64,000 nt of DNA from assembly GCA_951406725.2 (NCBI GenBank), contig OX597821.1:15004001-15068000 (forward strand), written 5' to 3'. The stretch comes from Octopus vulgaris (Eukaryota). The notes beneath the pieces were generated by a model, which searched no databases, was not told the DNA's origin, and saw only the letters and a list, made by a program, of their open reading frames with translations. Below, one piece after another: positions 17,436 through 63,960 of the stretch; within the stretch, counting starts at the first letter, position 1, and every line of letters starts with the position of its first letter. The translations under genes were made by a program, and so were the position numbers.

Positions 17436-18337
17436 AAGATAAGAAAATGGAGAAATACATCTAAATCAAATATCAATTACCAGATAATACTCAATCACAT
17501 GCTTTATTAAACCACCACATAAGAGACTGTAGGGTTAGATATAAAAGCAGAACAAATCAGTGTACATAAAGGAATGTGCATAAAAGTGTACATAAAAAAG
17601 TAATGTTGTATAATAAGTAGAATATATATAAAAGAGAATATAAATATAATTAAATATAAATATAAGTATAGATTACATCTTACAGCTTTCGGCCATGTAG
17701 ATGAGTATGTCTCATTTTACCAATATTAGCCTTTTGTGGTAGGTCAATATATATGGATATAAATGAGACATTTACAAAAATATCATAAGGAAAATGAAGA
17801 GGCCTTATGATATTTTTGTAAATGTCTCATTTATATCTATATATATTGACCTACCATAAAAGGCTAATATTGGTAAAATGAGACATACTCATCTACATGG
17901 CCGAAACAGCTGTAAGATGTAATCTATACTTATATTTATAATTACTTATATTTATATGCTCTTTTATATATATTCTACTTATTATACAACATTACTCTTT
18001 TATGTACACTTTTTTATGTACATTCCTTTATGTACACTGTTTTGTTCTGCTTTTTATGTCTAACCCTACATTCTCTTATGTGGTGGTTTAATAAAGTATG
18101 TGATTGAATATTATCTGGTAATTGATATTTGATTTAGATATATTTCTCCATTTTCTTATCTTGTATTAGTAATTTGTGGTAAATCATTTTATCTTTGCTC
18201 ATATAATACAGTAAATGAATTGATTGCATCGCAATCATTAACATTTATGTATTAACTTTGTTGGGTACTTCACTATCAGTATATTGGATATATGTTATCC
18301 CATGGAGGGTTGCATTTACAACCCCTATCTCAATTTG
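17436..18337 (+). mobile_element. Fold-back Penelope-like insertion: ~355-bp inverted arms (17436-17790 / 17803-18162) plus unique 3' extension
   Basis: Arms are reverse-complementary around a 12-nt loop; HHR-like aTGAAGA-ggcc...ggcc-GAAA-CAGCTG-TA-agatgt at 17794-17920; (TA)n on both sides. Confidence 0.8.
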
Positions 18338-18739
18338 TATATATATATATATATATATATACACGAAGGGCTTCTTTCAGTTTCCGTCTACCAAATCCAC
18401 CCAGACAGCTTTAGCCAGCCTGAGGATATAGTAGAAGACACTTGCACACGGTACCACGCCGTGTGACTGAACCTAGAACCATGTGGTTGAGAAGCAAGCT
18501 TCTTACAACGCACCCACTCCTGTGCCTATCCACGCACCTACATCCGTGCCTGTATATGTACACACAGACAGATAGACACACACACACTATATAATAAAAC
18601 GAATGGTTTACAGCGAGTAACTTATTGGTAAACACGATCACTTTCACAGTGATCGTTTTGTATATAGTAAATTAAAGACAGAAGATGGAATACACGAGAA
18701 TTTATTATTAATCACGACAATGGTTTTGGCATATTTTCT

Positions 18740-18798
18740 ACTACTACTACTACTACTACTACTACTACTACTACTACTACTACTACTACTACTACTAC
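18740..18798. repeat. (CTA)n microsatellite
   Basis: Direct inspection. Confidence 0.97.
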
Positions 18799-21184
18799 TG
18801 CCCACGTATTAGATTTTCGCACGTTTGACGGTCGTGGCCAAAGTGGCGTTAATATAGGCTGGTCGTTTGTTGAATATATCTTCGTTGACGAATAATCTAG
18901 ATATTCTGGCCGAAATGTTATTAATTAGTACCCTAATGATAGACGGGGGATGATTTGACCCAAAGTTTATGTATTATAGGCTTTCATTGGGTTTCTAAAA
19001 TGGTTCGTGCAGCCTAGTATCTAAGTATTTAACCTACGATATTCGTTGTCTATGGTTATTAAGTGTCCGAAGCTTTAAAAAAAAATATTTTTTTTGTTTT
19101 TCTCATTGTACCTTACTGCATTTACTTATGAAGAATGACGCGTCATCCCCGTATAGATCTACTGTACACACACACACACACACACACACACACACACACA
19201 CACACACACATATATATATATATATACTATGTTTCCTTATTCTCTCACAAAGTAACAGTCCACCTGGGTCTATATATAAGTCACTTGCCGAAGAAGCAAC
19301 ACACTGGGGCTGAACTGATGGTTACATGCAGGGCAACACATGCACACACACACACGCATATATATATACATATACATATATATATATATATATATATATA
19401 TATATATATGTATGCATATAAATATCTATATATAATTCTTTTTGGGATTTGGTTTGCAAGATTCTTTATATGAGTTCGTGTGTTAAAGCATATTCTGTTG
19501 TGTTTACCGGTGAGTGTGTAAAATAATAAGGCACTAAAAGAGAATGACTCTCTCCAGACACAACAGAATATATATATATATATATATATATATATATATA
19601 TATATATATATATATATATATATATATATATATATATATATACACAATCATTTAATATAGTAAGAAAGTGTTCATGCTGTTTAACAACCCAGGACAGCCC
19701 TGGTCAAATAAGTTTCTCAAAAATCACAATCAGGTGTTCTATTTCCGGTCGATTGGCTGTGGTTTCTAGTAGATAGAATAATGGCGTAGGAGTTCTTTAA
19801 ATGCAAGTTACTATGGTGAACACACTGTTGCTAGAAGAGAAACTTTTACTATGCTGTTGCTATTTCTCTATGTTGACTGTATTACCGTAGGTTGCTACAA
19901 TGAGCAAAATATTGTATTTCTTTCATTGTTTTTGTGTTTGCTTCCCTCTGAAGTCTCTCGAGAGAGCAGTGTCCTTCACGCTCTACAGTGCTTCTGATCC
20001 TTGTGGTGGGTAATCTCAAATCGAAGACCTACTTGAAACAAAATAGGTTTTATAAGGTATGACGATGGAATTTGAACTCATTTCACTAACAGTTGGAACA
20101 AATACTGCAAGGCACTTTTCCGACATACATGTTGTCCAGCAAATCTCTTGACATAGATCCATTTCGTCATCGATACCAAATGCTTGAAACTGATCTCGGT
20201 GCGATTTCAATTCAAAGCGGTGAATGCCAAAACAAATCCTGCGAGGTAGTCTCTCCGAAGCTCAAGTGACAGTACAAATTCGTCGCCTACAGTTTCTGTT
20301 GTTTGTGGTTAACCTTAGTCTGTTCCAATCGGATGATTTGTTCATGCATATCCAGTATTTTCTGGCAGGCATTATTCATAATATCATTCTGTTCATTATT
20401 TTCAAGGCGGCAGGTTTTGATTTTTGGGAGATTTAGTTATATTCATAGTATCGTGCTCCTATAAATTCTTTCAAAGTAAAGGGAACACTGGTGTATATTC
20501 CTGTGAATAACAAAATATTGCCATTCATTGCTATGAGAAAAACTGAATGACTACATATTACAGTAGGGTGCCGAGTCGTTAATGTCAACATTAAAAACAA
20601 TGTTACAGAATTTAACGGCATGCTATAAAAAGGATGCAAGTTTACTGTAGCTTGGATTTGTGAAAAGAGAATTAACAGACGTAACTATGTGCAGTGAGCG
20701 CTGTTGACTGTTGCAGTCGGGGAAATGAACTACTTTATAAGGATGTATTCACTACGCAGTACTTGTTTAGATTTCAATACAAAACACAGCATTGCTAAAT
20801 ATTGTTCTTGTATACCATTATTAAAAGCAAGGCATTGTATACACGCACACTCATACACACACACATATCCTCACTATATGTATGAATATTAAAATACATA
20901 CGTACATTAAACACAAGTATGCACACATATATATCATATATGTCTGTATAATATTCATATGTGTGTATGTGTGCAACTATGTGTGCATGTATAGAAATGC
21001 AATATATATATATAAATATATATATATATGTGTATATATATGTGTATATGTATACATATATATATGTGTATATATATACATATATATATGTGTATATATA
21101 CATATATATATGTGTATATATGTATATATATATATATTATATACATATACCTACATACATACATACATATATATATATATTACA

Positions 21185-61689: not shown

Positions 61690-63090
61690 TACACATAGAC
61701 ATATTTATATCCATATATATATATATATATATATATATATATATATATATATATATATATATATATATATATATATAAAAAAAAAAAACATACACATATA
61801 TATATATATACATACATATATATATATACATACATATATATACACATACATATATATACATACATATAAACATACATATATATACATATATATATATATA
61901 CATACATACATATATATATATATATACATACATACATATATATATATATATATATATACATACATATATATATACATACATACATATATATATATATACA
62001 TACATATATATATATATACATACATGTATATATATACATACATATATATATATACATGCATATATATATATATATACGTACATATATATATATACATATA
62101 TATACATACATATATATATACATACATATATATATACATACATATATATATATATATACATACATATATATATGCATACACACATATATATATATATATA
62201 CATATATATATATATATATATCACTATCACGTGACCGACCAGACCATCAGATGTTGCTACACATCGCTGGTCACAATGCGTTCGCATTGTTTTAGCCTTC
62301 GAACGACGCCACCCCGCTGGCTAAGCGAGCAGGCCAACAGACGAAAGAGTGAGAAAAAGAGTGGTGAAAGAGAACAGCAGGGATCACCACTCCCTGCCGG
62401 TATTTGTGGAGCTTCTAGGTGTTTTTCGCTCAATAAACACACACAACGCCCGGTCTGGGAATCGAAACCGCGATCCTTCGACCGCGAGTCCGCTGCCCTA
62501 ACCACTGGGCCATTGAGCTTCGACACACACACACACACACACACACACACACACACACACACACACACACACACACACACACACACACACACACATACAT
62601 ACATATATATATATATATACATACATACATATATATATACATACATACATATATATATACATACATACATATATATATATATATACATACATATATATAT
62701 ATATATATAGATACATATATATATATATATACATACATACATACATATATACATACATACATACATATATATATACATACATACATATATATATACATGC
62801 ATACATATATATATATATACATACATATATATATATACATACATATATATATATATACATACATATATATATATACATACATATATATATATACATACAT
62901 ATATATATATATATATATATATATATATACATACATATATATATACATACATATATATATATATATATATTCATATATATATATATATATATATATATAT
63001 ATATATACATACATACATACATACATACATACATACATATATATATATATATATATATATATATATATATATATATACACATATATATAT
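61690..63090. repeat. Compound (TA)/(TACA)/(CA) arrays flanking a SINE
   Basis: Direct inspection. Confidence 0.95.
62221..62522 (-). mobile_element. SINE-A head with a third, different 3' tail
   Basis: 62345-62522 matches SINE-A; 62221-62340 differs from both other tails and ends in (gtgata)n. Confidence 0.85.
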
Positions 63091-63441
63091 CTACACGATT
63101 TTCAGTCGCCCCGATGCTTGGTTAAAACGGTAAAAAAGTATTGAGATATTGAGAAGGGTTTTCCGACTGGTTTTCCTTGATTATTAGGTACCTAGTCAAT
63201 AGGAATACGAATGATACCAATATATTAGGTAAATGTAAAGTGGAGAAAAATTGAAGGGGTGGGTTAAATAGACAGAGAAAAGCAAATCGAAAAAGGGGAC
63301 ACTTGGAGCAGATGGGATTTTCTGCTACGTTTCTTTCGATAAAAGAAAAATCTAACAAGAACAACTTATACTGCCACCTTCGCACTTACTTAATGAATAT
63401 ATATATATATATATATATATATATATATATATATATATATA

Positions 63442-63960
63442 ATCTTATAAGAAAGGGCTAAAGAAGATATTTCTAAAGCCAATATATATCCACTTATAAT
63501 CCACTTGCTACAGGAAAAATTGAACTGAAAATCGGGCAACTAACCTTTAGCAAATTTAAATTTCGTTATCTCTATATTGAATCAATTTCGGAATTAATCC
63601 TATAAAGGATACATTCTTCGTCAGTAGAGCTTACAAGGGAATATAAATAAAATACTCACATGCGTTTATGGAAAAAGCAGAAGCTAAAAACATAACTACA
63701 TTTAAGTACATCATTTATATCTAAAAATAAACATTCCTTGGTCAGTCTCAGAACAACCTGTTGACTTTTCGCCGCTACATCTTGTAATGGTTACCAGTCC
63801 CCTGTAAGCAAGCAGTAATGAGTTTACTACTAACAAATATAGGATGAAGCCCCTTAGTTGCCCGATTTTCAGTTCAATTTTTCCTGTAGAAAGTGGATTA
63901 TAAGTGGATAATCAGTATATTGGCTTTAGAAATATCTTCTTTAGCCCATTCTTCTAAGAT
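63442..63960. mobile_element. Fold-back insertion: ~100-bp inverted arms (63442-63542 / 63853-63960) with an HHR in the spacer
   Basis: atcttataagaaagggctaaagaagatatttctaaagccaat...atcgggcaactaa versus its reverse complement; abuts (TA)n on the left. Confidence 0.82.
63570..63629 (-). ncRNA. Type-I hammerhead ribozyme motif
   Basis: ctcta-CTGACGA-agaat-gtatcctttataggatta-attcc-GAAA-TTGA-t-TCAA-TA-tagag. Confidence 0.75.

Follow-up and report, generated by a model that had tools for sequence, protein, structure and literature searches.

Inverted insertions at (TA)n tracts in a 64-kb stretch of the Octopus vulgaris genome are likely 5'-truncated Penelope-like elements, probably primed from both DNA ends

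Insertions of Penelope-like elements (PLEs) often begin, at the 5' end, with an inverted and 5'-truncated copy of the element, and often bear a tail on one side (PMC8557442). According to the same source, Naiads and nearly all Hydra-clade families, including those of octopus, insert in (TA)n, this bias tracks a linker motif in the PLE proteins, and Hydra-clade members carry canonical hammerhead ribozymes; how the inverted copies form is still termed open there. In the Penelope elements of Adineta vaga, the head-to-head arrangement is the commonest, and self-priming on an antisense template was favoured as its origin (PMC3846280), the only printed model for inverted PLE copies that we found. 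In vitro, a purified PLE protein, predicted to be a dimer, both cleaves and extends the two DNA strands, with a preference for AT-rich targets and with two internal start sites (PMC11167929). Paired hammerheads on opposite strands, 100-700 bp apart, have also been described (PMC4209133), and general background is given in PMC8969392, PMC13282606, PMC9977147 and bioRxiv 2026.07.22.740005. We analyzed inverted, PLE-like structures (fold-backs) in 64,000 nucleotides of Octopus vulgaris DNA (GenBank assembly GCA_951406725.2, contig OX597821.1, forward-strand positions 15,004,001 to 15,068,000; hereafter the window, numbered from its first letter). The window is DNA of animal type with a G+C content of 32%; simple repeats take up about 13 kb of it, and SINE-like repeats are numerous.

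We conclude that the fold-backs are likely 5'-truncated insertions of several endonuclease-bearing PLE families, and we consider it probable that, for each, a (TA)n tract was cut and its two DNA ends then both served as primers for reverse transcription of element RNA. Both the architecture and the preference for TA are known for PLEs from the literature, and the finding mainly adds uncatalogued families, which may already be present in the octopus repeat library of PMC13282606. The feature is real and provides a small mechanistic clue; our modest addition is that both copies of a pair can hold private sequence.

Inverted pairs were taken from a self-BLAST of the masked window, since without masking TA repeats swamped the search for inverted repeats. 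We found nine local inverted pairs, not counting the filler of one site that is described below. Six of the nine were PLE-like (at 17437, 26977, 31913, 54308, 58600 and 63442), and the remaining three were a mariner remnant (43010-43581) and pairs at 49715 and 56858. A first-pass annotation, made from the sequence alone, had reported fold-backs at 17436, 26985, 54308, 58425, 58596 and 63442; altogether we describe eight structures, A to H. In six of the eight, one copy had a short 3' end and the other carried an extension of 26-176 nt (the extension at 63442 could be tail or flank), and we refer to these as the short-end and long-end copies.

At site A, the short-end copy (17437-17790, minus strand) has its 3' end inside (TA)n at the left, and the long-end copy (17803-18337, plus strand) consists of an arm (17803-18161) that includes the 3' half of a hammerhead (17903-17914) and a 176-nt tail (18162-18337), followed by (TA)n; the arms are identical at 341 of 354 positions and are separated by a 12-nt spacer. 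Site B (26977-27120) is an old head-to-head pair with zero spacer and no TA flank, in which 55 of 71 arm positions are identical (26977-27050 and 27050-27120) and a decayed hammerhead lies at 27048-27082 on the plus strand. Site C (31823-31989), absent from the first-pass list, has 38-bp arms (31913-31950 and 31951-31988; 36/38 identical) with zero spacer, a 90-nt extension at the left and (TA)n on both sides. Site D comprises a 53-nt short-end copy (54308-54360, minus strand), with two private mismatches no more than 11 nt from the junction, and a long-end copy (54444-54562, plus strand) that starts within a hammerhead, continues as arm to 54496 and ends in a tail of about 66 nt before (TA)n; the arms (54308-54360 and 54444-54496) match at 51 of 53 positions. 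Site E, also missing from that list, joins a short-end copy of about 430 nt (54581-55013, minus strand) to a long-end copy (55014-55056, plus strand) that has 14-16 nt in common with the short end and then a tail of about 26 nt that meets a TA-rich tract. Site F (58425-58551) has (TA)n on both sides and no self-inverted arm; a tail-end piece of the site A family (minus strand) is joined to a short-end piece (plus strand), both outward-pointing and 73/82 and 41/48 identical to the family, and the two do not overlap but lie about 95 nt apart along the family sequence. Site G (58596-58817) has 81-bp arms (58600-58680 and 58737-58817; 72/81 identical) with the same 3' end position, a 56-nt spacer and a hammerhead at 58642-58692 (minus strand). 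At site H, a 412-nt short-end copy (63442-63853, minus strand; hammerhead 63575-63624) with its 3' end in (TA)n faces an inverted copy (63854-64000, plus strand) whose arm reaches 63960 and is followed by at least 40 nt of tail or flank; 99 of 102 arm positions are identical (63442-63543 and 63854-63960), and the right end of this structure runs off the window.

Overlaps between copies (38-354 bp) were often longer than those of L1 twin priming, copy lengths ranged from about 43 to 535 nt within the window, indicating variable 5' truncation, and paired arms differed by 3-23%. Overlapping arms had been described for all six of the sites first reported; five of them have such arms, and 58425, with its two non-overlapping pieces, does not. 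Sites F and G lie in a cluster (58109-58907) of at least three inserts (58215-58335, 58425-58551 and 58596-58817) with TA tracts between them, which suggests that a single tract was hit more than once.

Hammerheads define the polarity of most copies. We scanned the window with the standard core and two variant cores and used 30 block shuffles of the sequence as a control. There were four hammerheads with a stem I of at least 3 bp in the window (38300, plus strand; 54636, 58642 and 63575, minus strand), compared to a mean of 0.13 per shuffle. Three of the four are inside fold-backs, with TA 49, 55 and 133 nt downstream, and the decayed hammerhead at 27048 (plus strand) is additional. The hammerhead at 54636-54667 has a U3-A8 core, a type described for Schistosoma PLEs (PMC4209133). 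A core was present within the window at four of the eight structures, and a fifth, at 54308, was completed by public contigs: the window holds only the 3' half at 54444, and loose contig ends before this position supply the rest in 45 contigs of run X1 and 72 of run X15. The six sites first reported do have their 3' ends outward, as had been claimed, judged by hammerheads at 26985, 54308, 58596 and 63442, by the 3' half at 17437, and by family homology to 17437 at 58425, where the pieces contain no hammerhead. The scan gave no match at site C (31823), and its polarity is assigned by analogy alone. A search of the window against Rfam with E values up to 1 returned, among the best 150 of 360 matches, only microRNA models on simple repeats. 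A TA-bounded segment at 38126-38552 contains the hammerhead at 38300-38359 (plus strand) and no inverted overlap, and is likely a further PLE-like insertion.

The first-pass annotation spoke of many unrelated families. There was indeed no nucleotide similarity between families in the self-BLAST, save 17437 with 58425, but in most of them a hammerhead of the PLE type lies close to the 3' end and a tail is present on one side only, and they are likely one class, the PLEs.

The outer ends of the arms were strongly associated with (TA)n. For five of 18 arm ends, a pure TA tract of at least 16 nt lay no more than 12 nt away, compared to about 0.6% of non-repetitive positions (binomial p = 4e-8, with the 18 ends not fully independent). 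This enrichment over background had been proposed as a test of the original idea; TA flanks had been described as usual, and 26985 is without one. All five TA-abutting ends belong to the six PLE-like pairs, and none of the six ends of the three control pairs was at TA. When whole inserts were considered, 12 of 15 ends were at TA, a count that is partly circular since TA tracts helped define those ends. Two of the controls (49715-50969 and 56858-57092) are local inverted pairs without TA flanks or hammerheads. The third, at 43010-43581, is an internally deleted mariner with 36-bp inverted repeats and an open reading frame (ORF; 43089-43385, minus strand) that matches the Mos1 transposase (E = 3e-18).

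These data bear on two views of why TA tracts are involved. It had been suggested that TA fragility is the cause, and in a fuller form of this idea host-made breaks at (TA)n cruciforms would be repaired independently of the element's endonuclease, with PLE transcripts or other RNAs being copied from the two ends. TA tracts do form cruciforms and break (PMC12972899, PMC13645644), and a fold-back end adjoins 10 of the window's 50 TA blocks. The pattern is nevertheless limited to PLE-like ends, the three other pairs, one of them the mariner, having 0/6 ends at TA; PLE endonucleases themselves cut AT-rich DNA (PMC11167929); and the (TA)n bias tracks a motif in the PLE proteins and is on record for both the Hydra and the Naiad clade (PMC8557442), which makes fragility unnecessary as a cause. 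Nothing here requires patching of this kind, and we think it quite improbable. It also seems doubtful that PLE ribonucleoproteins act as two-ended, RNA-templated patches of host-made (TA)n breaks, with two fixed priming sites and joining of the polymerase-theta type. If the patching view were true, a large share of the TA tracts here would be retroelement repair scars made without an endonuclease cut.

We also considered whether the structures could be palindromic, TA-targeting DNA transposons akin to miniature inverted-repeat transposable elements (MITEs), which TA-flanked inverted arms resemble, or fold-back artefacts of the assembly, and find both highly improbable. Arm length varies within a family, the ends are asymmetric, hammerheads are present, the arms differ by 3-23% and contigs of public runs contain such joints; both readings were rejected.

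The two kinds of 3' end and the sequence private to each copy bear on the mechanism. At site G both 3' ends are equal, and 26977 is outside the count of short and long ends given above. The identical two end points are seen at 17437 and, independently, at 58425. At 54581, both copies contain private sequence (about 418 and 26 nt); at 58425 both do, with no overlap at all; and at 63442 both probably do (310 and at least 40 nt). Because each copy holds sequence that the other lacks, neither can have been templated on the other at 54581, at 58425 and probably at 63442.

This finding matters for PLE self-priming, in which a single complementary DNA (cDNA) or an antisense template would fold back on itself and be copied, a route put forward for Adineta Penelope in the Discussion of PMC3846280. 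Self-priming accounts for junction palindromes with zero spacer at 26977 and 31913 and for the 12-nt spacer at 17437, and where a short end lies at an AT-rich motif, microhomology could have joined it to the TA tract. A fold-back copy cannot hold sequence that its template lacks, and the flank-derived filler at site D, described below, implies free DNA ends at the target. Private sequence at 54581 and 58425 excludes simple self-copying there and favours two priming events, and we regard self-priming as unlikely for the set. With short, abundant stubs of this kind, self-priming and two-ended priming can be told apart simply from the sequence, by asking whether there is private sequence in both copies. 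Private sequence and filler could both be tallied across the genome from any long-read assembly for this animal.

The two copies at site D are separated by 87 bp of filler (54359-54445, minus strand), an exact inverted copy (87/87) of the upstream flank at 54103-54189 (plus strand), a low-copy sequence with low contig depth. Each junction has 2-3 nt in common with the element. The filler resembles templated inverted insertions at DNA breaks (PMC11724301), a likeness that also speaks for break repair in the patching view. It fits, and points to, host end-joining as the last step, and the exact match suggests that the event may be young.

Contigs or reads of public runs X20 (raw reads), X1, X15 and X16 were aligned to window positions 53995-55054 only, and the alignment skipped 54207-54320 and 54561-54591, the outer ends of sites D and E, as repeats. 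In X16, one unbroken contig covers 54002-54206 with no differences, and there was zero depth on the filler. In X15, contigs break exactly at 54103-54132, depth on the right end of the filler was 10.5, and there was neither a break at 54189 nor doubled depth, although contigs cannot prove absence. These observations are suggestive only of presence/absence polymorphism at site D. A 33-nt pattern from this site had no match in metagenome or genome contigs, so that these prokaryote or metagenome collections yielded no longer copy.

The same alignments revealed other copies of these families. Summed contig depth was about 2e5 to 3e6 on 54463-54534, whereas the flank had 5-91; although depth is not equal to copy number, this is consistent with great abundance of the 54308 family. 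In 36, 77 and 15 contigs, the loose ends that follow 54497 continue as (AT)n. Among the 15 joints listed from the contigs of three runs (12 further joints exist), 10 link antisense to sense arms in the 54308 family at differing positions, two do so in the 54581 family, two are internal skips, and one is a strand change with unclear geometry. Such joints reach site E at 55015-55026. The listed joints support a head-to-head orientation bias, within a scope in which tail-to-tail joints are largely undetectable. Arms of constant length with target site duplications had been named as evidence against the original idea; the arms vary, and there are 10 different junctions in the 54308 family. No partial tandem of the kind that forms a pseudo-long terminal repeat (pLTR) was present in the window, and there were two go-back joints, each in a single contig. 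Eight reads of X20 aligned, five of them with (TA)n directly before the 54308-family tail at 54500; these could come from a copy made up of the tail alone or from expansion of an internal AT motif, and were not used for conclusions.

From the arm geometry, hammerhead polarity, TA abutment, the two kinds of 3' end, the variable junctions and the flank filler, all directly observed, we infer the following steps of two-ended priming. The GIY-YIG endonuclease of the element would cut both strands in (TA)n. One DNA end would prime at the far end of the tail, producing the long end. The other would do so farther upstream, at an internal site that is fixed, producing the short end; in several families this site falls on a short, AT-rich motif with the potential to pair with the target. 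Both cDNAs would terminate early, at variable points, and host end-joining would link the free cDNA ends in head-to-head orientation, in some cases once DNA of the nearby flank had been copied. The first-pass proposal that both ends of a TA break prime reverse transcription is supported by the anatomy and by the in vitro PLE work (PMC11167929). A literature search outside the key 2005-2006 reviews did not find an explicit two-ended priming model for inverted PLE copies, and such a model may be in print.

Several observations weigh against two-ended priming by PLEs. The pair at 26985 has no TA tract within 218 nt on the left or 2488 nt on the right, and the zero-spacer sites 26977 and 31913 fit self-priming equally well. 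There is only half a hammerhead at 17437 and none at 31823, and the variant cores entered the scan only after the sequence had been inspected. The tails, at 26-176 nt, depart from the 30-40 bp published for PLEs. Three frames of 54857-55014, in the 5' part of site E, had no Pfam hit, and the best-looking frame had no phmmer hit among 1.84 billion proteins, the stubs being short. Ten short motifs were unmatched in the Naiad, Chlamys and Hydra consensus files of Craig 2021, an exact-text comparison in which line wraps could hide matches. Most joints rest on a single contig with 20-30 nt on the short side, a private mismatch of the window at 54350 blurs the exact joint position, and tail-to-tail joints are largely invisible since the skipped repeats covered the outer ends. 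By eye, the 5' part of site E is similar to Hydra endonuclease C-termini, a likeness that we did not count as evidence.

Among PLE clades, Hydra is the best-fitting candidate. Hydra-1_Obim, Hydra-2_Amil and Penelope-13_HM (Craig et al. 2021, PMC8557442) have the same (TA)n preference and a canonical hammerhead near the 3' end with a very similar stem III. Penelope-13_HM also has an inverted 5'-truncated copy at its 5' end, and by eye the hammerhead table of that paper closely resembles the motifs at 54308 and 58596. Points of difference are that the structures here had no exact motif match to the Hydra consensus files and that their tails reach 176 nt; the stubs carry no ORF for the protein features that define the clade (RWK and DKT motifs, a CxCX5C linker and no CCHH). 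The insertion unit of endonuclease-positive (EN+) PLEs, as described for Adineta vaga (PMC3846280) and Naiad (PMC8557442), likewise has a head-to-head inverted pLTR, an optional one-sided tail, 5' truncation and microhomology joins, whereas the stubs here are without an ORF, the mark of EN+ PLEs being one for a telomerase-like reverse transcriptase and a GIY-YIG endonuclease, and end inside TA, where target site duplications cannot be read; no empty site was recovered. Naiads have no canonical hammerhead, unlike most families here, with canonical or variant cores at 54581, 58596 and 63442; 17437 and 31823 remain compatible with Naiad. The Poseidon element PAc of Anolis carolinensis provides an in vitro parallel, with two reverse transcription start sites that define a tail, cutting and extension of both strands, and AT-rich targets (PMC11167929), but it belongs to another clade, and the sections cited from that paper draw no link to inverted copies.

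L1 twin priming is similar in that two opposed cDNAs are primed by both target strands and meet with overlap or a gap (PMC12016303). The first-pass statement that overlapping arms set these fold-backs apart from L1 was too strong, because 58425 has no overlap and because in L1 the cDNAs overlap in 54 of the 132 close junctions, by a median of 12 bp (PMC12016303). The differences are that poly(A) is absent here and 3' ends run straight into TA, that the second start site is scattered in L1 and fixed here, and that overlaps reach 354 bp here compared to the L1 median. Overlaps beyond the L1 range would call for a second copy of the RNA, a tandem transcript or displacement of a strand.

Other repeats were seen in the window. 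At 55128-55170, an exact 21-bp tandem duplication is present at the 5' end of a SINE-like repeat adjoining a TA tract. A repeat end occurs in two direct copies (35263-35329 and 35851-35916; 87% alike), each running into a CA/TA tract. A young repeat family is found at 5555-5939, 11961-12343 and 62374-62521, with two copies that are 96% identical, inverted and 6 kb apart.

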